Assembly: GCA_964394425.1 (NCBI GenBank)
Contig: CAYMXP010000003.1
Coordinates: 20,995-84,994 of the forward strand
Length of the DNA stretch: 64,000 nt
Source of the DNA: an uncultured Chryseobacterium sp.
GTDB taxonomy: Bacteria; Bacteroidota; Bacteroidia; Flavobacteriales_F; PHOS-HE28
Direction of reading: 5' to 3'
Below are positions 31,789 to 64,000 of the stretch, piece after piece (position 1 is the first letter of the stretch; each line of letters starts with the position of its first letter). The position numbers were made by a program, and so were the translations under genes. Below the pieces are notes generated by a model. That model ran no database searches, was not told the DNA's origin, and saw only the letters and a program-made list of their open reading frames with translations.

Positions 31789-33549
31789 TCACTGCTTGAG
31801 CTTGCTGCGGCGCTTTTCGTCGCCCAGGCCCACGGGGCTGCCCACGCGGGTCATCGCGCAGCGGAAGCCGATGGTGGCCGTGCTCTGGCGCTCGTCCAGG
31901 AAGCGGCGGGTGCCGGGGTTGGCCCAATAGATCCGGTCGGCCCAGCTGGCGCCCTTGAACACGCGCGCACGGTCGTTCAACAGGGTCGTGGCGAACGCAC
32001 CCGTGGCCTCGTACATCGGGTCGCCCTCCACCTCCACGTCGTAGTAAATGCTGCTCTCCTTGTCCCCGTCAAGGTAGTTGATGTTGTCGGAGATGTCGTA
32101 GTTGCGCCGGTCGATGTTCTCCTCCAGCGTCACGTTGCGGTAGCGGATGTCGCCGGGTTGGTCCGTCTGGTAATCGCTGATGCCCGAGAGCAGCTCGGGG
32201 CAGATCGCCAGGTCCTGGCCCTTGATCATGTCCACCATGTCCTGCACGCGCTGGTAGGCGGCGTCGGTCTTGCGGGTGTTCTTGAACTCGATGGATTGAT
32301 CGATCGCCGTGAGCAGGTCGTCGATCAGCTTGCCTTCCTCTTCGGTGGCGCGTCCCTGCATGCGCGTCTGGAACTCGGAAAGGAAGTACTTGATACCCTC
32401 TACGTCGTACACCACCTGGTCGTACTTGTCCTGGATGGCGCCATCGCTGTTGAGCACCTTGGTCTTGAACACGTTGCCGCGGTAGGGGCGGAAGTCATCC
32501 TTGTCCTCGGGGCTCAAGGGGCGATAGACGTCCATCACCCACTCGCTCACGTTGCCGGCCATGTTGTACAGGCCATAGTCGTTGGGCCAGTAGCTGAACA
32601 CCGGGGTGGTGATGTCGCCGTTGTCGTTCAGGCTGCCGGCAACGCCCATGTAGTCGCCCTTGCCGCGCATGAAGTTGCCGCGGAAATCGCCGAAGAAGGC
32701 TCCGCCCTTCTTGCGGCTGTCGTAGCGCACGTAGTGGCCGTTCCACGGATAGACGCGCCGCTCGATGATGCGTTCGTCCACGCTGTTGCCGATGAGGCCG
32801 TAGGCGGCGTATTCCCATTCGGCTTCCGTTGGCAGGCGATAGCGCGGCAGCAGGATGCCATCCTCCATGCGGATGTTGCGCGTGTCGCGGTTCGGGTTGA
32901 AGTCCTGCACGCCGTCCACCTTCTTGCCGCTCTCGTACTGGTTGGCCAGGTAGGCGTCGGTGGTGAAGTGGTCCTCGTTGATCTGGTTGGGATAGTGTTC
33001 GAAGAGGCCCTCGCGGATCAGGATCAGCTCGTTCACGCGGTCGCTGCGCCATGCGCAATAATCGTTGCACTGCAGCCAGTTCACGCCCACCACGGGGTAG
33101 TCACGGTAGGCCGGGTGGCGCAGGTAGTACTCCACGTAGGGCTCGTTGAAGGCCAGCTTGCCACGCCACACCAGGGTGTCGGGCAGGGCCTTCTTGTAGA
33201 TCTCCGGATAATCCGCGCTGTACACGCGGTCCAGCCAGTAGAGGTATTCGAGCCAGTAGAAGTTGGTCACCTCCACCTCGTCCATGTAGAAGGAGGAGAC
33301 CGTCACCGTGCGGGGGATGTTGTTCCAGTCGTAGGTGAGCTCGTCGGTCACACGGCCCATGGTGAACTGGCCACCCTCGATCAGGATGATGCCGGGGCCG
33401 TTCTCCTGTTCTTCGAAGGCCGCTTTCTCGAAGCCTCCGTTCTTGGAGTCGTTGTAGTTCCAGCCCGTGGCGCCGCTCTTCTCGAAGTTGCACGAGCCGA
33501 AGAGCAGGCCGGCCAGGGTGAGGATCGCGATGTTCCTTGCAGGGTTCAT
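31789..33549 (-). CDS. gldJ: gliding motility lipoprotein GldJ (586 aa)
   Basis: ATG 33549 gives MNPARNIAILTLAGLLFGSC, a lipobox. A sulfatase-modifying-factor (FGE)-like fold is suggested by RVYPWNG, GNVSEWV and GFRC. Synteny with porU/porV and murF matches what I recall for Flavobacterium johnsoniae. The upstream 198 aa of the track ORF are an artefact. Confidence 0.85.
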   Translation of the reverse strand: MNPARNIAILTLAGLLFGSCNFEKSGATGWNYNDSKNGGFEKAAFEEQENGPGIILIEGGQFTMGRVTDELTYDWNNIPRTVTVSSFYMDEVEVTNFYWLEYLYWLDRVYSADYPEIYKKALPDTLVWRGKLAFNEPYVEYYLRHPAYRDYPVVGVNWLQCNDYCAWRSDRVNELILIREGLFEHYPNQINEDHFTTDAYLANQYESGKKVDGVQDFNPNRDTRNIRMEDGILLPRYRLPTEAEWEYAAYGLIGNSVDERIIERRVYPWNGHYVRYDSRKKGGAFFGDFRGNFMRGKGDYMGVAGSLNDNGDITTPVFSYWPNDYGLYNMAGNVSEWVMDVYRPLSPEDKDDFRPYRGNVFKTKVLNSDGAIQDKYDQVVYDVEGIKYFLSEFQTRMQGRATEEEGKLIDDLLTAIDQSIEFKNTRKTDAAYQRVQDMVDMIKGQDLAICPELLSGISDYQTDQPGDIRYRNVTLEENIDRRNYDISDNINYLDGDKESSIYYDVEVEGDPMYEATGAFATTLLNDRARVFKGASWADRIYWANPGTRRFLDERQSTATIGFRCAMTRVGSPVGLGDEKRRSKLKQ

Positions 33550-33569
33550 GGGCGCGATGGTTCGTTGGT

Positions 33570-34556
33570 TCAGAACTGCGGACAGGGAACGGTGCGGAAA
33601 CGCCGGTTCTTGCGTTTGCACTTGAATTGAAGCTGCACGCTCACCTCGTGGGAACCGGCCGTGGCCGTGGTGAGCTTGCTGGTGGTGACGTCGTAGCTGT
33701 AGCCGAACTTGAACTTCTCGGTGTGGAAACCGAACAGGATGATGAACGCATCGCGTGTGCGGTACCACACACCGGCGGTGATGGGTCCGCGATCCACGTA
33801 CAGGCCCAGGTTGAACTGGCGGAAGTCGGCCTGCTGCTGGTAAAGGACGTTCGGGGAGATCCGCGTGCCGGCATCGCCGTATTTCCCACGCATGCCCAGG
33901 GGGATCGCCGCGCCGGCGTGCCCGGTGAGCTTCATCGGCAGCTTGCTGGTGCCCACGATCAGCGATTCGTTGGGCTCGGTGAGGTGATGGGCGGCGAAAC
34001 CGACCACGAAAACGTCCGAATAGCCCAGGATGCCGGCCGAGAAATCGGCATTGCCCACCGTGCCGCCACGGGGGACGTCGTTGGTGTTGTACACGAAGCC
34101 CCGGCGGGGATCGATCATATCCCCGAACGTGAGCTTGTCCCAATCGAGCGATTTCTGGAAATAGGTGGCCTGGAAGCCGGCCTTCAGGGAGAATTTCCGG
34201 GAGAGGGCCTGTTGGTAGGAGTACATCCCGCTCACCGTGGTGGTGTTCAGGGTGCCTTTGCCGGCCTGGTCATGGGTCACCAGGAGCCCAAGGCCACCGG
34301 AGATCCCTTCAACGTGCTGGTCGTAGCTCCCGCTGGTGGTCACGAAGGTGCCGCTGAGGGCCGGCCATTGGTTGCGGTAGTTGAGCACCACCCGTGGGCA
34401 GCGGGCCGTGCCGGCGAAGGCCGGGTTCAGGTAGAGCGGGTTGGCGTAGAACTGGGTGAACTGCGGATCTTGTGCGGTGACCTCCATCACCGCGATCACC
34501 CCCAGCGCCAGCCCGCCGGCCATGCGCCACAGGCCTTTTCCTATCGTGCTTCCCAT
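33570..34556 (-). CDS. PorP/SprF family T9SS membrane protein
   Basis: Signature AQDPQFTQFYANPLYLNPAFAG follows a signal peptide. The start is ATG 34556 or ATG 34523; ~320 aa of beta-barrel-like sequence. Confidence 0.8.
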   Translation of the reverse strand: MGSTIGKGLWRMAGGLALGVIAVMEVTAQDPQFTQFYANPLYLNPAFAGTARCPRVVLNYRNQWPALSGTFVTTSGSYDQHVEGISGGLGLLVTHDQAGKGTLNTTTVSGMYSYQQALSRKFSLKAGFQATYFQKSLDWDKLTFGDMIDPRRGFVYNTNDVPRGGTVGNADFSAGILGYSDVFVVGFAAHHLTEPNESLIVGTSKLPMKLTGHAGAAIPLGMRGKYGDAGTRISPNVLYQQQADFRQFNLGLYVDRGPITAGVWYRTRDAFIILFGFHTEKFKFGYSYDVTTSKLTTATAGSHEVSVQLQFKCKRKNRRFRTVPCPQF

Positions 34557-34733
34557 TGAGCGATGAGATCCCCCTTGATGAAAGGGCCAAGTATACGAAG
34601 CGCCCGGAGCTACGGTTCCTGTCCTGCCGCCTGCAATAATGCCGACCGAAGGTCGTTGGTCGTACGTTCCGAACGCGAGGGTCGAAGGTAGTAGTTTCGA
34701 TCCGACTTGTTGAAAACCTGTTGATCGCTGTTG

Positions 34734-37700
34734 ATGGCAAAGCTGAAGTTCCCCTGCCTGGCGCTGGTGTTGTCCGCCACCGCTTCCTTCAACGCCAGTG
34801 CCCAGCGCGTCATTTCCTTCACCCTCGAACGCACCGACCGGCCCAAGGAGGTCGGCGACCTCAGGCGGGCCGGTGCGGAGGAAGCCTTGTGGTTCAAGGG
34901 GGCGCACGTTGACCTGGACCGTGGGGAGCTTCCTTTCCACCATGCCTCGGTGGAGTTGGGACCTTCGGCGACCTCCTTCACGGCCGAGCTGACCGAGGCA
35001 CGCTATGGCGCGTTGACCCCGGCCGAGGTTGACGCCCTGCCTGCGCTGGCCAAGGTCGATGGCGACCCGGAGATCACCACCCGCCTCTCGTGGTACCGCA
35101 AGAAGCCCGTTGCCCTGATCGACCTGTATCCCTACCGGCTGAACCCGGCCACCCGCCAGGTCGAACTGCTGCTGTCGGCCAGGATCCTTGTTCATGAGAA
35201 GAAGGGGGACCGTGGCGGCCACAAGGCGAACGTTTATCCGGACCATTCCCGTCTTGCCACCGGCGATTGGTATCGGTTCTCCGTGGTGGAAGACGGGGTA
35301 TACAAGCTGGACCATTCCTTCCTCCAGGAGCTGGGCGTGGAGATGAACGCACTTGCTTCAGACCAGATCAACATCTATGGCAACCACACCGGCCAGCTGC
35401 CATACAAGAACACCGGGCAGCCCCCGACGGACCTTGAACTGAACGCCATTGAAGTGGTGGACGGCGGCGATGGGCAGTTCGGGCCCAACGACCACCTGCT
35501 TTTCTATGCCACGGGCGCCCAACGCTGGGTGCTGGACGACGATGAGCCGCTGTTCCGGCACGTGAAGAACGTGTACACCGATTCGGCCGTGTACTTCATC
35601 GGCATCGGCACCGATCCGCCCATGCGCATCGCCGATGCGGCGCTTTCCTCCGATCCAGCCACGCACCAGGTGACGGCGTTCAACGACCGGGGCTTCATCG
35701 AACACGATGCGGTGAACCTGATCAAGAGCGGGAGGGAGTTCTTCGGCGAGGTCTTCGACATGGTGGATGTGTACAACTACAACTTCAGCTTTCCCTACCT
35801 GCGGAGCGACGAACCGGTGACGGCCATCCTCGCCGGGGCGGCCCGGACCGTGGGAAGCGCGACCAGTTCCTTCAGCTGGACGATCGGATCCTCTCCCCCC
35901 GGCAGCGCCACGATCCCGGGGATCGGCTACGGCTATACGGCGGCCTATGCGCTCCCCTTCGATGACACGATCTCTTTCTACAGTTCCTCGTCCACCCTGC
36001 CCATCACCGTCACCTTCCAGCCCTACGACCCCATCACCTCCATCGGCTGGGCGAACTACCTGGAGGTGAACGTGCGACGCGACCTGAAATTCACCGGCGA
36101 TCAGATGGCCTTCCGCGACCTGCCTTCGGTGGGTGTGGGGAACGTGGCCGAGTTCACCCTGGACCTGGCCTCCAACGTGCATCGCATCTGGGAGATCACC
36201 GATCCGACCCGGGTGCGCAACGTGCCGTTCACCGACGCGGGTTCGACCAAGAGCTTCCGCGTGGCCAGCGACAGCCTGCGGCAGTTCATCGCCTTCCGCG
36301 ATGCGGATCACCTGGAGCCCACCGCGATCGGCCGGGTGCCCAACCAGGACCTGCATGGGATCCAGAACCCGGTGGACCTGGTGATCGTCAGCCATCCGGA
36401 CTTCCTCTCCGATGCACAACGGCTTGCCACCCGGCGGGAAGGCGAAGGCATGAGCGTGCATCTGCTCACCCCCCAGCAGGTGTTCAATGAATTCTCCGGT
36501 GGCGCGCGCGATGCCACGGCCATCAAGCGACTGATGAAGATGTTCTACGACCGGGCCGGCGCGGACAGCACCCTGTTCCCGCGGTACCTGCTCCTCTTCG
36601 GCGATGGCTCATACAACAACCTTTCGCTCTCCAGCCACAACCAGAACATGGTGCCCACCTACCAGACGGCCGACTCATGGAACCTGTCCAAATCCTACAC
36701 CTCCGACGACTACTTCGGCCTGCTCGATGATGCGGAGGGGGAGGCCGCGGGCGACCTGCTGGACATTGGCGTGGGGCGCCTGGTGGCCAGCAGCAGGGAA
36801 CAGGCGGGCGAACTCGTGGACAAGATCCTGGGCTACGACCGGCTGGCCCTGTTGAGCACGCCGGAAGCTTCATGCAACACCGGAGGGGATGGCGGAGCGA
36901 GCGACTGGCGCACCTGGGTGGTGTTCTGCTCCGATGACCAGGAAGGCGATGGCTTCGAGGGCACCATTCACATGTCGCAGAGCGATCAGCTGGCCACCAC
37001 CCTTCCGATCAGCGTGGAGAACGACCACCCGGAACTCAACGTCGTGAAGATCTACCTCGATGCCTACCAGCAGTTCAGCACACCCGGTGGGGAGCGGTAT
37101 CCCGATGCGGAGGCCGAGCTGCGCGACCGGGTGCAGAAGGGCGTGCTGGTGGTGAACTACATCGGGCACGGTGGCGAGGTGGGCTGGGCACATGAGCGGC
37201 TGCTGGACAACAGCACCATCCTGGGCTGGACCAACTTCGAGCGGCTGCCCCTGTTCATGACCGCCACCTGCGAGTTCACCCGGTGGGACGACCCGGCGCG
37301 CACCTCGGCGGGCGAATACGTGGTGCTGAACCCGAACGGCGGTGGCGTGGCCCTGATGAGCACCACGCGCCTGGCCTATTCCAACGCCAACTTCGCCCTC
37401 TCGCAGGATTTCTACACGCACGTTTTCAGCAAGACCGATGAACTGGGCCGCACCCAGTGCCTGGGCGATGTGTACCGGCAGACCAAACGCGACGCCACCA
37501 CCGCCAGCCAGACCAACCACCGCGTGTTCATGCTCCTGGGCGATCCGAGCATGCGCCTGGCACAGACCCGCATGCGGGTGATCACCACGGCGGTGACCGA
37601 CACGCTGGGCAATGCCATGGACACCCTCGGGGCGCTGGCCACCGTGCGCGTGAACGGCATCGTGGCCGATGAAGGCGGCGGCCAGCTGACGGACTTCAAC

Positions 37701-38645
37701 GGCATCGTGATCCCCACCGTCTTCGACAAGCGCAGCAACCAGAGCACGCTGGCCAACGATGGCGGCAATCCCTTCAACTTCACCGTGCGCAAGAACATCC
37801 TCTATCGCGGCAAGGCCACGGTGAGCGGCGGCGCCTTCCATTTCACCTTCGTGGTGCCCAAGGACATCGCCTACCAGGTGGGCCCGGGACGCATCAGCTA
37901 CTACGCCGAAAGCAACGCCACCAACGCCGGCGGCTACACGCACGACCCGCTGGTGGGCGGCACGGCCGATGGCGTGGCCGATGACGTGACCGGCCCGACG
38001 ATCGGCCTGTTCATGAACGACGACCGCTTCGTGCCCGGCGGCATCACCAACGAGGATCCGCTGCTGTTCGCCAAGCTCTTCGATCAGAACGGCATCAACA
38101 CCACGGGCAACAGCATCGGGCACGATCTCGTGGCCGTCCTGGATGCCGAAACCGAGAACGAGGTCGTGTTGAACGACCACTACGAGGCCGATCTGGACAC
38201 CTACCAGAGCGGGAAGGTGCGCTACCGCTACAGCGACCTGGCCGAGGGCAGCCACACGCTCACCTTGAAGGCATGGGACGTGTACAACAATTCCTCCATC
38301 CGGACCACCGAATTCGTGGTGGCCTCCAGCGAGGAACTCGCCTTGGAGCACGTGCTGAACTATCCCAACCCCTTCACCACCCACACCGAGTTCTTCTTCG
38401 AGCACAACCGACCCTGCTCCACGCTCGACGTGCAGGTGCAGGTGTTCACCGTGGCCGGCCGCCTGGTGAAGACCATCGACCGCATGCTCACCTGCGAAGG
38501 GTTCCGCGCCGAGCCGCTGGCTTGGGACGGCCTGGACGATGCCGGCGACAAGCTGGGCCGCGGGGTGTACGTCTACCGGTTGAAAGTGGCGACGCCCGAG
38601 GGCGACAAAGCCGAGAAATTCGAGAAGCTTGTGATCCTGCGCTGA
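34734..38645 (+). CDS. porU: T9SS sortase PorU (C25-like cysteine peptidase, 1303 aa)
   Basis: ATG 34734 (34731 is TTG). Signal peptide, then His motif NYIGHGG (codon 37167-37169) and Cys motif TATCEF (codon 37269-37271). It has a PorU-type C-terminal domain and is immediately followed by porV. Confidence 0.85.
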   Translation: MAKLKFPCLALVLSATASFNASAQRVISFTLERTDRPKEVGDLRRAGAEEALWFKGAHVDLDRGELPFHHASVELGPSATSFTAELTEARYGALTPAEVDALPALAKVDGDPEITTRLSWYRKKPVALIDLYPYRLNPATRQVELLLSARILVHEKKGDRGGHKANVYPDHSRLATGDWYRFSVVEDGVYKLDHSFLQELGVEMNALASDQINIYGNHTGQLPYKNTGQPPTDLELNAIEVVDGGDGQFGPNDHLLFYATGAQRWVLDDDEPLFRHVKNVYTDSAVYFIGIGTDPPMRIADAALSSDPATHQVTAFNDRGFIEHDAVNLIKSGREFFGEVFDMVDVYNYNFSFPYLRSDEPVTAILAGAARTVGSATSSFSWTIGSSPPGSATIPGIGYGYTAAYALPFDDTISFYSSSSTLPITVTFQPYDPITSIGWANYLEVNVRRDLKFTGDQMAFRDLPSVGVGNVAEFTLDLASNVHRIWEITDPTRVRNVPFTDAGSTKSFRVASDSLRQFIAFRDADHLEPTAIGRVPNQDLHGIQNPVDLVIVSHPDFLSDAQRLATRREGEGMSVHLLTPQQVFNEFSGGARDATAIKRLMKMFYDRAGADSTLFPRYLLLFGDGSYNNLSLSSHNQNMVPTYQTADSWNLSKSYTSDDYFGLLDDAEGEAAGDLLDIGVGRLVASSREQAGELVDKILGYDRLALLSTPEASCNTGGDGGASDWRTWVVFCSDDQEGDGFEGTIHMSQSDQLATTLPISVENDHPELNVVKIYLDAYQQFSTPGGERYPDAEAELRDRVQKGVLVVNYIGHGGEVGWAHERLLDNSTILGWTNFERLPLFMTATCEFTRWDDPARTSAGEYVVLNPNGGGVALMSTTRLAYSNANFALSQDFYTHVFSKTDELGRTQCLGDVYRQTKRDATTASQTNHRVFMLLGDPSMRLAQTRMRVITTAVTDTLGNAMDTLGALATVRVNGIVADEGGGQLTDFNGIVIPTVFDKRSNQSTLANDGGNPFNFTVRKNILYRGKATVSGGAFHFTFVVPKDIAYQVGPGRISYYAESNATNAGGYTHDPLVGGTADGVADDVTGPTIGLFMNDDRFVPGGITNEDPLLFAKLFDQNGINTTGNSIGHDLVAVLDAETENEVVLNDHYEADLDTYQSGKVRYRYSDLAEGSHTLTLKAWDVYNNSSIRTTEFVVASSEELALEHVLNYPNPFTTHTEFFFEHNRPCSTLDVQVQVFTVAGRLVKTIDRMLTCEGFRAEPLAWDGLDDAGDKLGRGVYVYRLKVATPEGDKAEKFEKLVILR

Positions 38646-38707
38646 TGACCCATCCCCCCGAGCATGCCCGGCTATATTTGCCGCCCGTTTTTCGCTACGC
38701 CTTGTTG

Positions 38708-40015
38708 ATGCGGCTCCCTTCCCTTGCAGCCACCGCTGCGGCCCTGTTCCTGTGTTGCGCCGCTGGATCCTCGGTCCATGCCCAGTTGAACCAGGATTGC
38801 CTGGAGGCCATCGGCGGGCAGGAGTGCGGCGACCAGCTCAACACCATCACCACCGCGGTGCCCTTCCTGATGATCGGGCCGGACTCCCGCGCCGGCGGCA
38901 TGGGCGACGCGGGCGTGGCCATCTCGCCCGATGTGAACGCCATCCATTGGAACCCCTCCAAGCTGGCCTTCGCCGAGACCGACGGGGAGCTGAGCATCTC
39001 CTATTCCCCCTGGTTGCGCAACCTGGTGCCCGATATGAGCCTCGCTTACCTGGCGGGCTTCAAGAAGCTGGAGAACAAGCGCAGCGCCATCGGCGGTTCG
39101 CTGCGCTATTTCAACCTGGGCAACATCACCTTCACGGACTTCAATGGCGCGGTGATCCGCGACTTCCAACCGACGGAATTCGCCGTGGACCTGACCTTCT
39201 CCCAGAAGTTCAGCGACCTGGTGGGCGGCGGCATCTCGATCCGGTACATCAACAGCAACCTCACCGGGGGGATCAGCGTGCAGGGCGCCAGCAGCAAGCC
39301 GGGTCAGAGCATCGCCGCCGACGTGTCCTTTTTCTACCGCAAGGAGCAGATCCCCCTGGGCGACAAGGACGCCACCTTCGCCTTCGGCACCAACATCTCG
39401 AACATCGGCGCCAAGATGAGCTACACGGAGACGGCGGAAAAGGATTTCATCCCCATCAACCTGCGGCTGGGCCCGTCCTTCACCATCGATCTTGACGAAT
39501 ACAACCAGATCGGCTTCAACCTGGACATCAACAAGCTGCTGGTGCCCACCCCGCCGGTGTACCTGCTGGACACCGATGGCGTGGTGGTGTTCGACACCAT
39601 CGCCAACGAATTCGCCATCGCCAGCGGCATGGATCCCGACGTGGCCGTGGCGCAGGGCATGATCCAATCGTTCTACGACGCCCCCGGCAACGTGTATTAC
39701 GACGAGGCCGGCAACGTGCATGTGGAGGACGGAAGCAGGATGCGCGAGGAATTCCGTGAGATCAACCTGGCCGGTGGCTTCGAGTACTGGTACGCGCAAC
39801 AGTTCGCCTTCCGCACCGGCTACTTCTGGGAGCACGCCACCAAGGGCAACCGCAAGTACTTCACCATGGGCCTGGGGGTGCGCTTCAACATCTTCCAGAT
39901 CGACCTCAGCTACCTGATCGCCAATACCAACCAGAGCCCGCTGGCCAACACGTTGCGCTTCAGCCTGGGCTTCAAGTTCGACGACAAGGCCCGCAAGAAA
40001 GAGACGGTGGAATGA
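38708..40015 (+). CDS. porV: T9SS outer-membrane shuttle protein PorV
   Basis: ATG 38708 gives the signal peptide MRLPSLAATAAALFLCCAAGSSVHAQ. Conserved block AVPFLMIGPDSRAGGMGDAGVA. An alternative in-frame ATG at 38645 overlaps the porU stop. Confidence 0.85.
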   Translation: MRLPSLAATAAALFLCCAAGSSVHAQLNQDCLEAIGGQECGDQLNTITTAVPFLMIGPDSRAGGMGDAGVAISPDVNAIHWNPSKLAFAETDGELSISYSPWLRNLVPDMSLAYLAGFKKLENKRSAIGGSLRYFNLGNITFTDFNGAVIRDFQPTEFAVDLTFSQKFSDLVGGGISIRYINSNLTGGISVQGASSKPGQSIAADVSFFYRKEQIPLGDKDATFAFGTNISNIGAKMSYTETAEKDFIPINLRLGPSFTIDLDEYNQIGFNLDINKLLVPTPPVYLLDTDGVVVFDTIANEFAIASGMDPDVAVAQGMIQSFYDAPGNVYYDEAGNVHVEDGSRMREEFREINLAGGFEYWYAQQFAFRTGYFWEHATKGNRKYFTMGLGVRFNIFQIDLSYLIANTNQSPLANTLRFSLGFKFDDKARKKETVE

Positions 40016-55589: not shown

Positions 55590-57260
55590 CTATTCGATCC
55601 GGTAGCCCACGCCGAGCATCAGGCCCATGGCGTTGGAGCGCCGTGAGAGATCCCCGTCTTCATGGGTGTCGAACAGCTGGCCGCGCAAGCAGGGTTCGAG
55701 GCCGAAGGACCAACCCTTGGAGGTCATGTAACGCAGATAGGGCCGCGCGACATAGCCGATGGTCACGCTGGTCAGGGGTTGGTCTTCCAGGGCCACCAGC
55801 GATCCACCCGGGCCGACCGGCAAGGCACCCTGGCGCGAGGTCATGATCCCGATGGTGGGTCCGGCCCGCAGACCCAGACGCCATCGCGCACCGGCGGTAT
55901 GCACATCGCCCAGGAGGGGGATCTCCAGATAGCTCACGCGGTTGGTGCGCTCCAGGGCTTCACGCGTCACGATGGTCGTGGTGGTGGAATCCACCTGCGT
56001 GTCCATCACATAGATGGTGGTGTTCACGCCCTGGGTCACGTAGTAGGTGGTGCTGTCGACCACCACCGTGTCGATCACGATAAGCACCGTGGTATCGACC
56101 GGGTTGAACGTGTGCGTGTAGAACAGCTCCGTGTGCGGGCTGGTCTGCTCGTCCAGGCTCAGCTTTTCAGCATAGCGGATCGCGTGCAGGCCGATGCCAT
56201 AGCCCCAGTTCTCGCGTAGGTGCATCCATTCCAGCCCCAGCGAAGGCGAGGTGCTCTCGGTGATGGATCCATCAAACGCGCCGGCGGCTGAACCGCCATA
56301 GGTGGTGTTGGTCCACATCACGCCGCCCAGTGCGCTCAACTCCACCCAGCGGGCGGGAGGGACGAACGCGCTGGTCGTGGGCGCGGGGGCCGTGCTGTCC
56401 GACGGGATCGGAGGTTGGTCCGCGGTGATGGTCGTTGAGGTCCGTGGCCCGGCCGTGGAAGGCACGGCATCAGGCGCGGCTGTCGCGGTGGACGGTCCCG
56501 CTTGCGTTGATGTGCTTTGATCGACGGCTGCCGGTCGAACGTCCAGCGTGGGTTCCGCGGCGCCGGTCGCCTCCGTTCTGGATGGGGGCGCGGTCCCCAT
56601 CTCGGAGATGGTCACCGTCCCATCGCCCTGCCCGATGGTCGTGGGCCGCTGGTCGTCCCGTGCCGCCGCGATCCGTTGTTCATCGGGACCGGAGCCGCCC
56701 GTTCGTTCGACGGATGTCTCGACCGGTGCGTCATCAGCGGAACCTTCGCGGACGAGGACCGCCAACGAAGCCGGGGTGGGCATGCGCTCCCTGGTCATGG
56801 CCGTGCGCGCGTCGGGCTCCGGTCGGGGGCTGTTCCGCGCCGCGTCCACGGTCGATGCCGTTCCGGGCACCGCGGGCACCACCGGTACGGAAGGACCGGT
56901 GACGTTCTGGTCGGCGTTCGGCGCGGGACCATCAGCAGGGACGGATCCTCCTTCGGGCCCGGCCGGCCGAACCATCGCCGGGCCGACCACGCCGGGCTTT
57001 TCCGGTCCGATCGTCGTGGCCTCGATCGCCCTGCTTTCGGCCAGTGGCGCCGGTCGCCGATCAATGAGCAGCCAGGCCGCGATCCCTGCCAGCAACAGGA
57101 TGAGCGCCGCGGTGAAGCGGCGCACGGAGGCCCCGCGACGGTGCCGCTTTTCGGAACGCAACAACCGCTGCATGGCGTTCCAGTTCGCCTCGTCGTAGGG
57201 GAAGCTGCGCTCCTCCAGCTTGCGCCGGGCGCTCTCGTCGAATGCTTCGTTGCGGTTCAT
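55590..57260 (-). CDS. membrane-anchored protein (putative anti-sigma factor) with Pro/Thr/Ala-rich linker and C-terminal beta-barrel-like domain
   Basis: Its ATG overlaps the sigma-factor stop (ATGA). A ~45-aa N-terminal segment is followed by one TM helix (FTAALILLLAGIAAWLLI), ~250 aa of low complexity and ~230 aa with an alternating beta-strand pattern. Confidence 0.65.
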   Translation of the reverse strand: MNRNEAFDESARRKLEERSFPYDEANWNAMQRLLRSEKRHRRGASVRRFTAALILLLAGIAAWLLIDRRPAPLAESRAIEATTIGPEKPGVVGPAMVRPAGPEGGSVPADGPAPNADQNVTGPSVPVVPAVPGTASTVDAARNSPRPEPDARTAMTRERMPTPASLAVLVREGSADDAPVETSVERTGGSGPDEQRIAAARDDQRPTTIGQGDGTVTISEMGTAPPSRTEATGAAEPTLDVRPAAVDQSTSTQAGPSTATAAPDAVPSTAGPRTSTTITADQPPIPSDSTAPAPTTSAFVPPARWVELSALGGVMWTNTTYGGSAAGAFDGSITESTSPSLGLEWMHLRENWGYGIGLHAIRYAEKLSLDEQTSPHTELFYTHTFNPVDTTVLIVIDTVVVDSTTYYVTQGVNTTIYVMDTQVDSTTTTIVTREALERTNRVSYLEIPLLGDVHTAGARWRLGLRAGPTIGIMTSRQGALPVGPGGSLVALEDQPLTSVTIGYVARPYLRYMTSKGWSFGLEPCLRGQLFDTHEDGDLSRRSNAMGLMLGVGYRIE

Positions 57261-57826
57261 CGCGTCGCGTTGATCGTTCTGGTCCTGGTCCGTTCTTCAT
57301 GCATGGCCAGCGCGCGGCGCAGGATGGTACGCGCATGGTTCACGTGCCACTTGGATGTGCCTTCGCTGATGCCCAGCAGGTCGCGTACCTCGGCATGCGA
57401 GCATCCGTCGATGGCGAAGAGGTTGAACACCTGCCGCGTGACGGGCGGCAGCCGCCGCAGCAGCTCGGCGAAGGCTTCGGCTTCCATCTCCCGCAGGTAA
57501 TCGTTGGTGCTGGCCCCCGCATGATCGTCCACCTGGTCCGTTAGCGTTTCGTTCTCGCGGCGCGGCCTGCTCCTGCGGAAGGCATCGATCACCGTGTTGA
57601 TCACGATGCGTCGGGCCCAGGGCTCGAAGGGCACCGAGGGCCGCCGGTCGGCGAGCCCACGCAGGATGCGCAGGAAACCCTGGTTCATCAGGGCCACCGC
57701 GTCCTGCCGGTTGCGTTCGTAGCGCGTGCAGATGGAGAGCATCGAGGCATGCATCGACCGGTACAGCTCGTGCTGCGCCTTCGCGTCCCCCTTGACGCAG
57801 CGTTCGATCAGTGCCTGGGTGACCAT
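57257..57826 (-). CDS. ECF-subfamily RNA polymerase sigma-70 factor
   Basis: Region 2 (FEPWARRIVINTVIDAFR) and region 4 (LPPVTRQVFNLFAIDGCSHAEVRDLLGISEGTSKWHVNHAR); 189 aa. Confidence 0.9.
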   Translation of the reverse strand: MVTQALIERCVKGDAKAQHELYRSMHASMLSICTRYERNRQDAVALMNQGFLRILRGLADRRPSVPFEPWARRIVINTVIDAFRRSRPRRENETLTDQVDDHAGASTNDYLREMEAEAFAELLRRLPPVTRQVFNLFAIDGCSHAEVRDLLGISEGTSKWHVNHARTILRRALAMHEERTRTRTINATR

Positions 57827-57841
57827 GGTCCCTGTCGTGCG

Positions 57842-57874
57842 GAAGGGCGCCCCGAACGGATCGGGACGCCCTTC
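57842..57874 (-). terminator. strong hairpin between cargo paralog A and the sigma-factor gene
   Basis: GAAGGGCGCCCC-N9-GGGACGCCCTTC (11/12 bp). There is no T-run, so it could be a terminator, attenuator or processing site. Confidence 0.4.
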
Positions 57875-57892
57875 ACGCGCTTCTCACTTCGT

Positions 57893-58296
57893 TCAGTCGC
57901 GTTTCACGAAGCGCCGGCTGATCACCTCGCGTTCGTTGCCGATGCGCAACACGTACATCCCCGCGTTCAGGTCATGCACGCCCATGCGCCATTCGTTCAA
58001 GCCGGGTGCCACGGGCAGCGCCACGCGCCGCACCACTTTCCCATCGAGGGCCGTGATGCTCACGTCCACCGTTCCGCCCCGCTCGCTCACGAAGCTGGTG
58101 GTGAGCAGGTCGCTGGCCGGGTTGGGGAACACGGCGAGGCCATGCAGCGCGCTCTCCTCTTCGATGCCGCCGATGATCACCGGCTGCATCACGTTGATGG
58201 TGAAGCCCGAGCGGTCGTCGTTGTGCTGCGCGAAGCCGTTGTACATCCCCAGCGAATCGATCGAGACCGTGTCGCAATGGGTGCTGGTGCAGCCGA
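57893..58296. repeat. 404-bp segment identical to 59664-60067
   Basis: By-eye base-by-base comparison of the two 3' gene ends. Identity starts at the stop codon. The first mismatch is at 58297 / 60068. Confidence 0.85.
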
Positions 58297-59518
58297 TCGA
58301 GTCGTTGATCGTCAGGCAGAGCAGGTAGGGTCCGTTGCCCCCATATACGTGCGTGGGATAGGGATCCGTGGAGGTGTTGCCATCGCCGAAGTCCCAGGAG
58401 AAGTTGAACACGCCGCTGCCGCCGCTGCTCAGGTTCCACACCCAGAGCGTGTAGGGGATCGGCGTGGCGGTGCCCAGCACGCTGTCGATGGTGTAGGCCT
58501 GCAGCACCCAGAAGTTCGCCTGGCAGGGCGCGCTGGTGCCGCCCACGCAAACACAGTTGATGTCCCACACGTCGTTCGTGGTGAGGGGGTTGCCGTCGTT
58601 GCAAGGAGTACCGGGCAGGTTCGGGCCGAAGGGGATGCCCATGCAGTCGTAAATGGTGTTGAGCGAATCGACGCACACGCAGGTGCTGTCCCAGATGCCC
58701 GTGATGAAGATGCCGCCGATCGAGTCGGTGCAGGCCGTGCCGGGCAGGTTGGGGCCGCCGGGGATGCCGAGGCAATCCAACGGGCCCGTCCCGGTACCGA
58801 AGCATCCGCACAGGGGGGTCCAGGTGTCGTTCACCGTGCTGCTGTCGCCATCGTCGCAAGGTGTGCCGGGCAGGTTGGGCCCGTAGAGGATGCCGAGGCA
58901 ATCGTACCACACCGGCCCGGTGTTGATCCCGCCGAGGCTGTCCACCACCACCGTGTCACACATCAGGCTGGTGCAGCCGCCACCGTCGTTGATGGTGAGG
59001 CACAGGCCGTAGACCCCTGGGCTGCTGAAGGTCCAGGTGGGTTCGAAGGCCATGCTCGTCGAACCGTCGGGCATCCACCAGGTATAGCCGATCGGCGCGG
59101 TGCCCGTGCTCGTGTTGGTGGTGGTCATCTGCCAGGGTCCGCTCTGGCCAACGGTAAAGGAGGCCTGGCACGATCCTCCGCAGTTGATGGTCACGAAGGT
59201 GTAGGAACTGTCATTCAAGAAGTTGAAGGCCGTGCTGTCGTACACCGTGTTGATGATGCCCAGGCACGGGGTGCTCAGTTCGACCGCGGCCGTGAGGCTC
59301 GACAGGTTCAGCACCGTGGTGAAGCCGCAGGTGGGGCTCAGCGACAGGGTCTGGGTGATCGCGGGCGTGGTGCCGGGCAGTGTCTGGAGCGTCACCACCT
59401 GGCCGGGGTAGCATCCGGGGACCACGCCGTTGATGATCCAGGTGTAGGGCAGCTGGGCGGTGGCCTTCATGGTGAAAACCGTGGCTCCGGCCAGGAGCAG
59501 GGTTCGGATCGATCTCAT
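57893..59518 (-). CDS. T9SS cargo paralog A: Cys-rich repeat / PKD-like protein with type-A C-terminal sorting domain (541 aa)
   Basis: ATG 59518 gives the signal peptide MRSIRTLLLAGATVFTMKATAQ. Three copies of a ~37-aa four-Cys repeat, two PKD-like modules (e.g. FNFSWDFGDGNTS...HVY) and the CTD LAVFPNPASD...GMYVLRIGNEREVISRRFVKRD. Confidence 0.85.
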   Translation of the reverse strand: MRSIRTLLLAGATVFTMKATAQLPYTWIINGVVPGCYPGQVVTLQTLPGTTPAITQTLSLSPTCGFTTVLNLSSLTAAVELSTPCLGIINTVYDSTAFNFLNDSSYTFVTINCGGSCQASFTVGQSGPWQMTTTNTSTGTAPIGYTWWMPDGSTSMAFEPTWTFSSPGVYGLCLTINDGGGCTSLMCDTVVVDSLGGINTGPVWYDCLGILYGPNLPGTPCDDGDSSTVNDTWTPLCGCFGTGTGPLDCLGIPGGPNLPGTACTDSIGGIFITGIWDSTCVCVDSLNTIYDCMGIPFGPNLPGTPCNDGNPLTTNDVWDINCVCVGGTSAPCQANFWVLQAYTIDSVLGTATPIPYTLWVWNLSSGGSGVFNFSWDFGDGNTSTDPYPTHVYGGNGPYLLCLTINDSIGCTSTHCDTVSIDSLGMYNGFAQHNDDRSGFTINVMQPVIIGGIEEESALHGLAVFPNPASDLLTTSFVSERGGTVDVSITALDGKVVRRVALPVAPGLNEWRMGVHDLNAGMYVLRIGNEREVISRRFVKRD

Positions 59519-59583
59519 GGGGTTGTAGCGTTGTGTCGTTTCATCTGCATACACGCAGGAAGGAGGGCCGGGGTTGGGTGAGC

Positions 59584-59614
59584 GATCAGAAAATTAGAGG
59601 ATCAGAAGATCAGA
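59584..59614. repeat. cluster of three GATCAGA heptamers 5' of paralog A
   Basis: GATCAGA at 59584, 59600 and 59608. The context GCGATCAGAAAATTAGAGGATCAGAAGATCAGA is homologous to 61484-61515. Confidence 0.7.
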
Positions 59615-59663
59615 AGAGCACCTCCATCGGATCGGGGACGACCTCGTCCGTTCCTCCTGTCGC

Positions 59664-60067
59664 TCAGTCGCGTTTCACGAAGCGCCGGCTGATCACCTCG
59701 CGTTCGTTGCCGATGCGCAACACGTACATCCCCGCGTTCAGGTCATGCACGCCCATGCGCCATTCGTTCAAGCCGGGTGCCACGGGCAGCGCCACGCGCC
59801 GCACCACTTTCCCATCGAGGGCCGTGATGCTCACGTCCACCGTTCCGCCCCGCTCGCTCACGAAGCTGGTGGTGAGCAGGTCGCTGGCCGGGTTGGGGAA
59901 CACGGCGAGGCCATGCAGCGCGCTCTCCTCTTCGATGCCGCCGATGATCACCGGCTGCATCACGTTGATGGTGAAGCCCGAGCGGTCGTCGTTGTGCTGC
60001 GCGAAGCCGTTGTACATCCCCAGCGAATCGATCGAGACCGTGTCGCAATGGGTGCTGGTGCAGCCGA
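59664..60067. repeat. 404-bp segment identical to 57893-58296
   Basis: See the partner repeat. The offset between the copies is 1771 bp. Confidence 0.85.
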
Positions 60068-61415
60068 GCGTGTCGTTGATCGTGAGGCAGAGGATGTAGG
60101 GCCCGTTGCCCGCATACACGTGCGTGGGATAGGGATCCGTGGAGGTGTTGCCATCGCCGAAATCCCAGGAGAAGTTGAACGCGCCGCTGCCGCCGCTGCT
60201 CATGTTCCACACCCAGAGGGTGTAGGGGATCGGGGTGGCGGTGCCCAGCATGCTGTCGATGGCGTGGGCCTGTAGCACCCAGAAATTCGCCTGGCAGGGC
60301 ACGCTTGTGCCACCCACGCAAACACAGGTGATGTCCCACACGTCGTTCGTGGTGAGGGGATTGCCGTCGTTGCAAGGAGTACCGGGCAGGTTGGGGCCGA
60401 AAGGGATGCCCATGCAGTCTACGATGGTGTTCGGCACGCATACGCAGGTGCTGTCCCATACTCCGGAAAAAACAATGCTCCCAACCGTATCCGCGCAAGC
60501 CGTTCCAGGAAGTGCGGTCCCACCGGGGATCCCGAGGCAATCGAGCGGACCGGTGCCGATCCCAACGCAGGCGCACCATGGCGCCCAGGTATCGCTGACC
60601 GTGGTACTGTCCCCATCATCACAGGGAGAACCCGGAATGTTCGGCCCGAAAAGGACACCCAGACAATCGAACCAGTAGGATCCACCACCATAGAGCATGC
60701 CGACGCTGTCCACGATCAACGTATCACACTGCCAGCTACTGCAGCCAAGGCTGTCGGTGATGGTCAGGCAAATGTCATAGTAGCCAGATGAGGTGAACGT
60801 GAAACCGGGTTGGAACGCGTTGCTGATGGAACCGTCAGGCATCCACCATTGATATGTCAGTGGGCCGGTACCTGAACTCAGATTGGTGGTGGCAATGTTC
60901 CATGCAGCGGTTTGCTGCACTGTGAAGGATGCATTGCATCCATAGTTGCCCACACAATCGCAACTGCTGTCCCAGGTATCGCCCGAGGTCAACGGGTTGC
61001 CATCGTCACAAGGTGTGCCGGGCAGGTCCGGACCTCCCATGATCCCGAGACAATCGATCGTGGATGATCCGCAGTTGAGCGTGACCATCGTATACGAAGT
61101 GTCCAGAAGGAACCCGAATTGAACACTGTCATACATCGTCACCATCGTCCCTCCGCACATGGTGGAAAAGGTCGCTTCAGCGAGGCTGCTGCTCAGGTTC
61201 AGGTAAATGGAGAACGTGCATGTGTTGGAGTCCACAGGCAGCGTCAGGCTATAGGCCGGCATGGTGCCGGGTAAGGTCTCCAGGTTGACGGTCTGGCCGG
61301 GATAGCAATTGGTCACGGTACCAGCGACCAACCAGGTATATGGGCCTTGTGCCAGCGCAGATGCTCCACCCATGGCAAGGCCAGCCACGAGCAGTGAGCA
61401 CGAAAGGGGGTTCAT
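59664..61415 (-). CDS. T9SS cargo paralog B: Cys-rich repeat / PKD-like protein with type-A C-terminal sorting domain (583 aa)
   Basis: ATG 61415 gives the signal peptide MNPLSCSLLVAGLAMGGASALAQ. Four copies of the four-Cys repeat. The C-terminal 134 aa are identical to paralog A. The 5' ~1 kb is visibly less GC-rich. Confidence 0.85.
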   Translation of the reverse strand: MNPLSCSLLVAGLAMGGASALAQGPYTWLVAGTVTNCYPGQTVNLETLPGTMPAYSLTLPVDSNTCTFSIYLNLSSSLAEATFSTMCGGTMVTMYDSVQFGFLLDTSYTMVTLNCGSSTIDCLGIMGGPDLPGTPCDDGNPLTSGDTWDSSCDCVGNYGCNASFTVQQTAAWNIATTNLSSGTGPLTYQWWMPDGSISNAFQPGFTFTSSGYYDICLTITDSLGCSSWQCDTLIVDSVGMLYGGGSYWFDCLGVLFGPNIPGSPCDDGDSTTVSDTWAPWCACVGIGTGPLDCLGIPGGTALPGTACADTVGSIVFSGVWDSTCVCVPNTIVDCMGIPFGPNLPGTPCNDGNPLTTNDVWDITCVCVGGTSVPCQANFWVLQAHAIDSMLGTATPIPYTLWVWNMSSGGSGAFNFSWDFGDGNTSTDPYPTHVYAGNGPYILCLTINDTLGCTSTHCDTVSIDSLGMYNGFAQHNDDRSGFTINVMQPVIIGGIEEESALHGLAVFPNPASDLLTTSFVSERGGTVDVSITALDGKVVRRVALPVAPGLNEWRMGVHDLNAGMYVLRIGNEREVISRRFVKRD

Positions 61416-61484
61416 GATCAGGAGTGGTTCTGGTGAACTTTCAGATCAATACACGCAGGGATGGCCAATGAGGTTGGGTCGGGC

Positions 61485-61561
61485 GATCAGACAATTGGAC
61501 GATCAGAAGATCAGACGCTCCCTTCGGAGCTGGCGTTGCTTTCAATTGTCTGATCTTCTCA

Positions 61562-61579
<18 letters not shown>
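61485..61579. repeat. GATCAGA / TCTGATC heptamer cluster (three direct plus three inverted copies) with CAATTG cores
   Basis: GATCAGA at 61485, 61501 and 61509; TCTGATC at 61549, 61565 and 61573. The 13-bp inverted repeat GATCAGACAATTG (61485-61497) pairs with CAATTGTCTGATC (61543-61555). There is an inner hairpin GCTCC-CTTC-GGAGC at 61517-61530. The last two units lie inside the final hutU codons. Confidence 0.7.
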
Positions 61580-63607
<2,028 letters not shown>

Positions 63608-63632: not shown

Positions 63633-64000
63633 CTAGCGGGCGATGATGAAGCGCCGGGGTCGTGAACCGTCCAATCTGAGAACGTACATACCTATGTTGA
63701 GGCCACCTACGTCTATCTTCTCATTCGCCGAGGTAAGCCGTGTTCTTCGCAACAACCGCCCTTCAAGATCATGGATCATGACCAGTGCCCCTGCTTTCGC
63801 CCCAGTCACAGTGATCGCATCAATAGCTGGATTGGGAAAAGCACCGAACCATGGTTCACTCTCTTCCTGCACAGCTACATCCCAATCGATGATCGGCGGC
63901 TGAATGATGGTATCACCATCAATGATCGCTCCAACGAGGTCCACTATCAATGCACCATTCATTCCCCGGTCGAACTGGACTTGGCGCAGTCCTAAGCCTT
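63633..64000 (-). CDS. C-terminal fragment of a T9SS cargo protein (5' end outside window)
   Basis: The minus-strand frame stays open upstream of Met 63962 to the window edge. The type-A CTD pattern is FPNPAIDAITVTG...DLEGRLL...IDVGGLNIGMYVLRL...RRFIIAR. The stretch is visibly lower in GC. The stop lies 25 nt before the hutU start. Confidence 0.7.
   Translation of the reverse strand, partial: GLGLRQVQFDRGMNGALIVDLVGAIIDGDTIIQPPIIDWDVAVQEESEPWFGAFPNPAIDAITVTGAKAGALVMIHDLEGRLLRRTRLTSANEKIDVGGLNIGMYVLRLDGSRPRRFIIAR

Follow-up and report, generated by a model that had tools for sequence, protein, structure and literature searches.

The nearest described case to the locus studied here is that of rgpA, kgp and hagA in Porphyromonas gingivalis, which encode cargo of the type IX (T9SS) secretion system, share an identical C-terminal repeat sequence and have been reshaped by recombination and allelic exchange (PMC5266723). 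Our subject is a pair of tandem, co-oriented and full-length genes, here called A and B, in a stretch of 64,000 nucleotides from contig CAYMXP010000003.1 (hereafter the window, in whose coordinates all positions are given), which derives from a Flavobacteriales of activated sludge. The two cases are alike in having T9SS cargo of type A with identical C-terminal repeats, modules rearranged by homologous recombination and repeats that break short-read assemblies (PMC5266723). In contrast, the P. gingivalis genes are dispersed, carry protease adhesin (CAD/DUF2436) modules and belong to a host-associated pathogen, whereas A and B are adjacent, would encode non-enzymatic proteins of PKD domains and Cys-rich repeats, belong to an environmental Flavobacteriales and are preceded by a putative extracytoplasmic function (ECF) promoter.

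Duplicated genes of bacteria are also known to evolve in concert through gene conversion (surveyed in PMC6053082), so that paralogs within a genome are closer to each other than to their orthologs through non-reciprocal recombination. A and B resemble this pattern but differ in being homogenised only in the 3' 23-44% of the gene, the rest belonging to another allele lineage, which makes the product a chimeric paralog and not a case of concerted evolution of the entire gene. In Neisseria pilE/pilS and Borrelia vlsE, the variable region of one expressed gene is converted from silent, promoterless cassettes. The likeness to the present locus is the non-reciprocal transfer of sequence between paralogous surface-protein loci; here, however, both genes are complete, each has a promoter motif, and it is the constant end, which encodes the C-terminal domain (CTD), that is converted.

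An earlier note on this stretch had proposed recent gene conversion at the CTD-encoding end and a mechanism of surface-protein variation. We conclude, at a probability of roughly 80%, that A and B are functional tandem genes for T9SS-secreted, adhesin-like surface proteins and that B is an A-to-B conversion recombinant formed in nested events. New here is a tandem, partial, 3'-anchored conversion in an environmental Flavobacteriales; conversion of paralogs is itself well known.

Results

The 3' ends of A and B are homogenised in nested strata

The two genes and their segments are listed below, where GC3 is the G+C fraction at third codon positions and L007 is a related locus with a single cargo gene.

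57893-59518, minus strand: gene A, 541 aa, ATG at 59518, product identical to database protein P0001; domain order putative signal peptide, N-terminal beta-sandwich, PKD1, three Cys-rich repeats, PKD2, linker, type A CTD
59664-61415, minus strand: gene B, 583 aa, a mosaic gene; domain order as in gene A, except that a fourth Cys-rich repeat follows the N-terminal domain, ahead of PKD1
57893-58296, minus strand: identical tract, copy A (A residues 408-541; end of PKD2, linker and CTD)
59664-60067, minus strand: identical tract, copy B (B residues 450-583)
58297-58660, minus strand: the older of the homogenised strata in A, spanning its Cys repeat 3 and most of PKD2
60068-60431, minus strand: older A-type stratum in B, the counterpart of 58297-58660
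60432-61415, minus strand: B-type 5' part of gene B (58-70% identity to A, 70-73% to the L007 single-copy gene; GC3 0.668)

A script check revealed that 57893-58296 and 59664-60067 are exactly identical over 404 nt, at an offset of 1771 and counted from the last base of the stop codon, just as the earlier note had read them. In the next 364 nt (58297-58660 against 60068-60431) there are 29 differences, corresponding to 92% identity and a synonymous divergence (dS) of 0.20, which bears out its estimate of about 90% over ~340 bp, and upstream of this stratum the identity drops to 70% and then to 58%. The 3' 771 nt contain 31 differences, none of them within the terminal 404 nt, a clustering beyond chance (P = 5e-11; 0/200,000 permutations), and dS between A and B rises by segment from 0 in the 404-nt tract to 0.20 in the next stratum and >1.5 in the 5' part. 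Pairwise alignment, which had been suggested as a check, places the breakpoints at 58296/60067 and 58660/60431. The steps in identity are real, while the single abrupt step described before resolves into at least two nested strata (dS 0, 0.20 and >1.5).

The tract of near identity has older divergence on both sides: 70-73% identity in the 3' flank, 100% in the tract, 92% in the next 364 nt and 58-70% in the 5' part. A homogeneous core set between diverged flanks is what conversion classically leaves, and since the core is of A type, the transfer went from A to B.

Comparison with the sister species L008/L009, which is ~91% identical to the window at the nucleotide level across A, the sigma gene and its partner, provides the reference for these strata. 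Only the A ortholog (P0003) lies between hutU and the sigma gene in this species. Within the 404-nt tract, A and the L008 ortholog are 91.0% identical, with 36 mostly synonymous differences in 401 nt (dS 0.273; nonsynonymous divergence, dN, 0.048). The identity of A and B in the tract is not due to constraint, because the ortholog of A differs by 9% there. In the 364-nt stratum dS is 0.20 for A-B, 0.32 for A-ortholog and 0.40 for B-ortholog, and in the 5' part it is 0.28 for A-ortholog while it exceeds 1.5 for A-B. Divergence between A and B thus changes from segment to segment, while A-ortholog divergence stays at ~9% (dS 0.27-0.32).

At the edge of the identical tract, six A-specific substitutions lie within 45 nt (58297-58341), B having the state of the L008 ortholog there, and A and B show a cluster of 8 mismatches at 58297-58346. 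The 58297-58341 cluster may be a short patch from another donor, or it may be a barrier that halts conversion tracts. One public sequencing run, X18, has solely the B version of the 58297-58341 cluster, at 2x depth.

Gene B combines two lineages

The N-terminal 328 aa of B are 70.8% identical to P0002, the 584-aa product of the single-copy gene of L007, and 51.7% identical to A, whereas over its C-terminal 255 aa the identity is 95.3% with A and 61.8% with the L007 protein. In a maximum-likelihood tree of the N parts, A groups with L008 (100/100) and B with L011_g1, L007 and L012 (93-94), and in the tree of the C parts A, B and L008 form one clade (100/100). Approximately unbiased (AU) tests against congruent alternatives gave p = 0.0047, 1.3e-4 and 5.6e-71, for clades chosen after the trees had been seen. 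The conflict between the N-part and C-part trees is a significant phylogenetic incongruence, in which congruence is rejected, and together with the bounded tract and the 9% difference from the ortholog it sustains the proposal of recent homogenisation of the CTD-encoding 3' end.

The composition of B changes with its ancestry. Its 5' part has a GC content of 0.576 and a GC3 of 0.668, against 0.65 and 0.90 in A and a GC3 of 0.87 in hutU; the mean GC3 of 28 long open reading frames (ORFs) of the window is 0.843 (SD 0.049), and the range quoted beside B is 0.84-0.90. The sharp fall in similarity followed by a less GC-rich B, already noticed from the letters, is therefore quantified as 58-70% identity and the lowest 1-kb GC stretch of the 64-kb window. 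The 5' part of B belongs to a separate, older allele lineage and is foreign-looking in codon composition. The B-type architecture with four Cys repeats is the commonest in the family, and the A-type is a derived form without the first Cys repeat.

No donor closer to the B 5' part was found among 5.8 billion database proteins, a search for contigs encoding B yielded gene B on no further contig, and a scan of metagenome contigs returned one distant locus only. Contig L015, which carries a 56-aa representative (P0123) of the cluster of B, was considered as a B locus and rejected, as it has no match to the window.

The order hutU, cargo gene(s), ECF sigma factor, partner and pyrophosphatase is kept in the relatives. 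The number of cargo genes between hutU (or what replaces it) and the sigma gene is one in L004, L007, L008/L009, L012 and L013, two in L002, L003 and L005, and three in L011; L001 shows one cargo gene on a contig that begins just upstream of it. In L011 (2088-6966), the first of the three paralogs, L011_g1, groups with B-type genes in its N part and with its own neighbour in its C part, where it also groups with the L002 ortholog of that neighbour (100/99; AU p = 4.6e-4), and over the last ~400 nt it matches the neighbour at ~83% identity as against ~55% upstream. From these alignments and trees, L011_g1 is a second, older mosaic, in which 3' homogenisation or 5' grafting occurred independently. 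The tandem paralogs of L003 and L005 are uniformly diverged, their CTDs included.

Both copies are real, and their identity is probably slightly overstated

The public data are contigs from 17 sludge and wastewater runs of many studies, and as they are contigs only, variable sites are unphased. In these runs the pieces specific to A and those specific to B have the same depth, a 1,102-nt junction contig (58592-59693) links the upstream part of A to the first 30 nt of the B 3' end, and the repeat is a single 404-nt contig at ~1.2-2.5x flank depth (median ~1.75x). An independent contig from the Joint Genome Institute, L014 (288 kb), belongs to the same strain (4 mismatches in 8,027 nt) and runs from inside the B 3' end through the spacer into A and beyond. 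Both copies and their tandem order are real, and neither the suspicion that one copy is an artefact nor an assembly collapse of one gene accounts for the locus.

Perfect identity, as claimed from the sequence, holds in the window itself; in other data sets the repeat has variable sites at 58022, 58150/58160/58161 and 58184, all inside the repeat. Here we gather what weighs against our conclusion. L014 copy A has A at 58022, T, G and A at 58150, 58160 and 58161, and C at the last site, while the partial copy B has C at the 58022 equivalent before the contig breaks off 2 nt away from the following variable site. In the 17 runs with this strain, the repeat contig has four haplotypes over the five sites, and none is the window haplotype. 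The contig data come without phasing of the variable sites, and the AU tests carry the post hoc choice of clades mentioned above. Finally, a tandem duplication of the A unit with later foreign 5' replacement, and not a conversion, could have left the older stratum behind.

Two readings follow for the first of these points: either there are up to 5 real differences between the copies, lost when assemblers collapsed the bubbles, or conversion is ongoing and haplotypes are population-specific. Under the former, to which we give a little less than an even chance, the 404-bp identity is a product of assembly; the copies differ at ~5 sites (98.8%), and a de Bruijn assembler merged the bubbles into one consensus edge, which then served for both copies. 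The L014 alleles with the contig break and the absence of the window haplotype from 17/17 runs speak for it, as do the four haplotype combinations among runs that are otherwise clonal, 19.8 kb of adjacent sequence having zero differences in four runs with four different haplotypes. Run X18, moreover, is without the A version of a 110-nt bubble, which suggests that bubbles are sometimes popped. On the other hand, bubbles of 63-112 nt are kept in many runs, runs of the same study agree (X9/X10, X3/X7), and the window haplotype has the outgroup state at 5/5 variable sites and does occur, though in part only, with 0 differences over 58080-58296 in run X25, where the strains are different ones. It may be that the true copies agree at 399/404 sites and that the window identity is a bubble-collapsed consensus, so that assembly has probably overstated the perfect 404-bp identity slightly; even so, 1.2% against 8% divergence needs a recent conversion, and the detail changes while the mechanism stays.

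The second reading, that conversion is frequent and ongoing and that the homogenised or re-assorted repeat haplotypes (H1/H1, H3/H3 and recombinants) differ between populations of one clone, is a tentative one, with odds clearly below even. It fits the single 404-nt contig at ~2x depth in each run, the restriction of variation to the repeat, haplotypes that vary between studies and are consistent within studies P3 and P7, and a 498-nt contig of X18 at 1.98x depth with the B version of 58297-58346. Against this, contigs lose variants and cannot be phased, X11 and X18 differ within study P8, and the depth ratios are ambiguous: a 44-nt two-copy piece falls short of 2x to a like degree, with the same value as the median of ~1.75, so that the depth of the 404-nt contig does not separate identical copies from copies that differ at 5 sites. 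An RNA contig of run X30 (60255-61689) with A-type alleles at 60285-60328 was likewise considered as a polymorphic tract and rejected, because at a depth of 3-5x an assembly could cross from the A path to the B path through one shared 31-mer (60329-60359); the apparent converted patch can thus be a chimeric path.

In the linker, shortly ahead of the CTD, the 58150/58160/58161 cluster replaces Glu453 by Val and Ala457 by Thr, and a donor for it was found nowhere within the window. A diversity-generating retroelement was considered and discarded, since nothing points there and the five variants are not adenine-specific.

The flanks delimit a duplicated unit

The flanking elements are as follows.

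57827-57892, minus strand: A-to-sigma spacer, with a GC-rich hairpin and without a promoter motif
59612-59663, minus strand: 3' flank of B, a diverged copy (~70-73%) of the A-to-sigma spacer that joins the right arm of the GATCAGA hairpin
61484-61580, strand not assigned: GATCAGA/TCTGATC heptamer inverted repeat, overlapping the last codons and stop of hutU

Only the right arm of the GATCAGA repeat is duplicated upstream of A (59584-59614), and the duplication junction lies between the two GATCAGA arms. About 100 nt of 5' flank are homologous between A and B (~70-75% identical), in line with the ~90 bp recognised previously. From the homologous 5' flank and the diverged spacer copy it follows that the duplicated unit spans the GATCAGA right arm at the hutU end to ~52 nt past the stop codon. 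In L008 a longer run of the heptamer lies inside the hutU end. The synteny breaks at hutU in this closest relative, in which DUF2490 and SCO1-SenC genes replace a CTD protein found upstream of hutU in the window (63633-63998) and in the distant relatives L002, L003 and L005; it is another T9SS CTD protein, ~490 aa in the relatives.

The B 5' part could have reached this position in two ways. An old B-A pair may have existed, B being lost in the sister species by a flank-repeat deletion that left A, or the A unit may have been duplicated, a foreign allele then taking the place of its 5' kilobase. The low GC3 speaks for a 5' part that is foreign or came in recently. Under either option, the last 404 bp need a later homogenisation.

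One version of the second option dispenses with conversion: the whole A unit, from the promoter to ~52 nt past the stop, was recently duplicated in tandem, and a B-type allele gained by horizontal transfer later took over the 5' kilobase of the upstream copy. The A-type spacer copy in the B 3' flank, the single copy in the sister species, the B 5' GC3 of 0.668 against the ORF mean given above and the dS of 0.20 in the 92% stratum, which is near the A-ortholog dS of 0.27-0.32, all suit this account. We nevertheless regard it as improbable, since one duplication cannot give three ages (flank ~70%, 404 bp 99-100%, next 364 bp 92%); it explains the older stratum only and still requires the later homogenisation of the last 404 bp.

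Programmed variation is not supported

The idea that the N-terminal parts are diversifying, and that the locus is a surface-protein variation mechanism, found no support in the analysis. The 5' kilobase of B is a separate, older lineage and not a diversified copy, and dN/dS is 0.13-0.25 throughout A and B, indicating that both genes are under purifying selection with no sign of diversifying selection. Programmed surface variation, in which conversion would shuffle variable N-terminal modules onto a constant secretion end, could draw on the copy number of one to three among relatives and on the two independent mosaics. We consider it very improbable: there are no silent cassettes, each copy being a full ORF with a promoter motif and a putative signal peptide; conversion affects the constant end, which serves secretion and anchoring; the 5' parts, at 58-70% identity, are too diverged to recombine with each other; and no recombinase or invertible element was seen in 55-64 kb. 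Lastly, the proposal that the ends stay identical through purifying selection on the CTD alone, for which a dN of 0.048 against a dS of 0.27 between orthologs might be cited, is already refuted by the 36 mostly synonymous differences between A and its ortholog and faces the fully diverged CTDs of the L003 and L005 tandem paralogs.

A and B are predicted T9SS cargo proteins

Pfam and NCBIfam profiles recognise two PKD stretches and a Por_Secre_tail/TIGR04183 domain in each protein, in agreement with the shared domain order read before. TIGR04183 scores 35.5 bits in A and 34.8 bits in B (cut-off 23), and PF18962 scores 33.0-33.1 bits in both (cut-off 27). With a CTD of ~75 aa above the curated cut-offs, A and B are classed by profile as T9SS type A CTD cargo. 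At its N-terminus each has a hydrophobic helix, residues 3-16 in the model, and then A-x-A-Q, together a putative Sec signal peptide. A 553-aa version of gene A with a GTG start at 59554 was rejected, as it overlaps the promoter motif and P0001 begins at the ATG. The T9SS machinery is encoded in the same window at 31789-40015, with matches to PorU (1228.7 bits), PorV (447.9), the PorP/SprF family (240.9) and GldJ (460.8).

Neither the N-terminal domain of ~90 residues nor the four-Cys repeats of ~40 residues (three in A, four in B) matched a Pfam family even at E = 10. The AlphaFold model of B is a chain of beta-sandwich domains (mean predicted local distance difference test score 75.8), whose best Foldseek matches are adhesin extender regions and other strings of immunoglobulin-like (Ig) domains, with no enzyme fold among the Foldseek matches; sequence and fold searches of the PDB returned only PKD, CTD and generic Ig-string adhesins. 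Within PKD2, a 35-nt stretch (58363-58397) is found with 2 differences on long contigs at the organism's own depth in many runs, and at least one more PKD gene elsewhere in the genome therefore shares it.

Metatranscriptome contigs match the unique 5' parts of A and of B as well as the B 3' end with its flank, which gives weak evidence that both genes are expressed.

A shared ECF-type motif precedes each cargo gene

The regulatory features of the locus are the following.

57257-57826, minus strand: ECF sigma factor, 189 aa (TIGR02937, 77.9 bits; cut-off 42.9)
55590-57260, minus strand: membrane partner, 556 aa
59550-59578, minus strand: ECF-type promoter-like motif before A, CCCAAC-N17-CGTGTA
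61450-61478, minus strand: ECF-type promoter-like motif before B, CCCAAC-N17-CGTGTA

The sigma gene and its partner lie downstream of A and B on the same strand, as had been noticed from the sequence. The sigma factor also matches PF04542 (Sigma70_r2), PF08281 (r4_2) and PF07638. The partner has a short N-terminus, one transmembrane helix, a ~250-aa Pro/Thr/Ala-rich linker and a C-terminal part that resembles an outer-membrane beta-barrel; only faint OMP_b-brl_2 and TDE1717 matches were obtained, and no anti-sigma family of Pfam or NCBIfam matched. It adjoins the sigma gene in all relatives, and a role as sigma partner is suggested by its position, the overlap of stop and start codons with the sigma gene and this conservation.

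The motif occurs twice in the 64 kb where 0.04 occurrences are expected. In the window and 13 related loci, CCCAAC-N16/17-CGTGTA is located 20-40 nt before the ATG of every cargo paralog, strictly conserved among relatives at the family level; the loci named for it are L001-L005 and L007-L013, with the motif upstream of each cargo gene. It is absent directly before the sigma gene, and scans of 57-62 kb for sigma-70 promoters and terminators found nothing. An AAC/CGT pair at this spacing is the usual ECF signature. The locus shares with autoregulated ECF sigma/anti-sigma operons the AAC at -35, the CGT at -10, the 16-17 nt spacing and an operon that ends in a sigma gene and a membrane partner, and differs from them in a partner with a barrel-like end and without a recognisable anti-sigma domain, and in a predicted promoter that precedes T9SS cargo and is duplicated with it. 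A CGT box at -10 has been read as an ECF promoter signature in Flavobacterium psychrophilum (motif SM6; PMC9723704). From motif and gene order, the cargo genes, the sigma gene and the partner likely form an autoregulated operon in which each duplicated cargo gene would carry its own promoter along, and the motif distribution points to the cargo genes as the chief regulon of the sigma factor encoded downstream.

Discussion

The results reported above fit a history in which the promoter region and first ~984 nt of B come from a distinct B-type allele lineage and its last ~770 nt from the resident A-type gene. The A-type part arose through two or more nested events, all with one end at the stop codon: an older one reaching ~58660/60431, with a dS of ~0.2 that would place it close to the split from the single-copy sister species, and a recent one covering the last 404 bp, with 0 to 5 differences. 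We hypothesize that RecA-type homologous recombination between misaligned direct repeats, within a chromosome or between sister chromosomes, was resolved as a non-reciprocal conversion from A to B, and that the tracts would end where similarity collapses, at the stop codon with its ~70% flank, at the 58297-58346 mismatch cluster and at the 58-70% 5' part. The homogenisation of the CTD may have been selected or merely tolerated.

Nothing here overturns current understanding, and the locus is an ordinary case of conversion between tandem paralogs. It is a clean and well-bounded partial gene conversion that creates a chimeric T9SS cargo gene, and it carries a caution for annotation and for population genetics based on metagenome-assembled genomes: a repeat that is perfect in a short-read or consensus assembly may conceal a few real differences. 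The ECF-type motif, conserved before every cargo paralog, offers a testable regulon for an uncharacterised sigma/partner pair.

A wider proposal, which we hold to be rather doubtful, is that the cargo array, the ECF sigma factor and the barrel-ended partner form a conserved module of sludge Flavobacteriales, in which N-terminal adhesin modules of different allele lineages would be gained, lost and grafted onto the resident PKD2 and CTD block, with conversion so frequent as to be visible in re-assorting repeat haplotypes among populations, otherwise clonal, of many wastewater plants; if true, the locus would be a natural system in which to measure rates of bacterial gene conversion in situ. For the cargo family itself, the finding means that the block of CTD, linker and PKD2 is swappable as a unit under a different N-terminal module.

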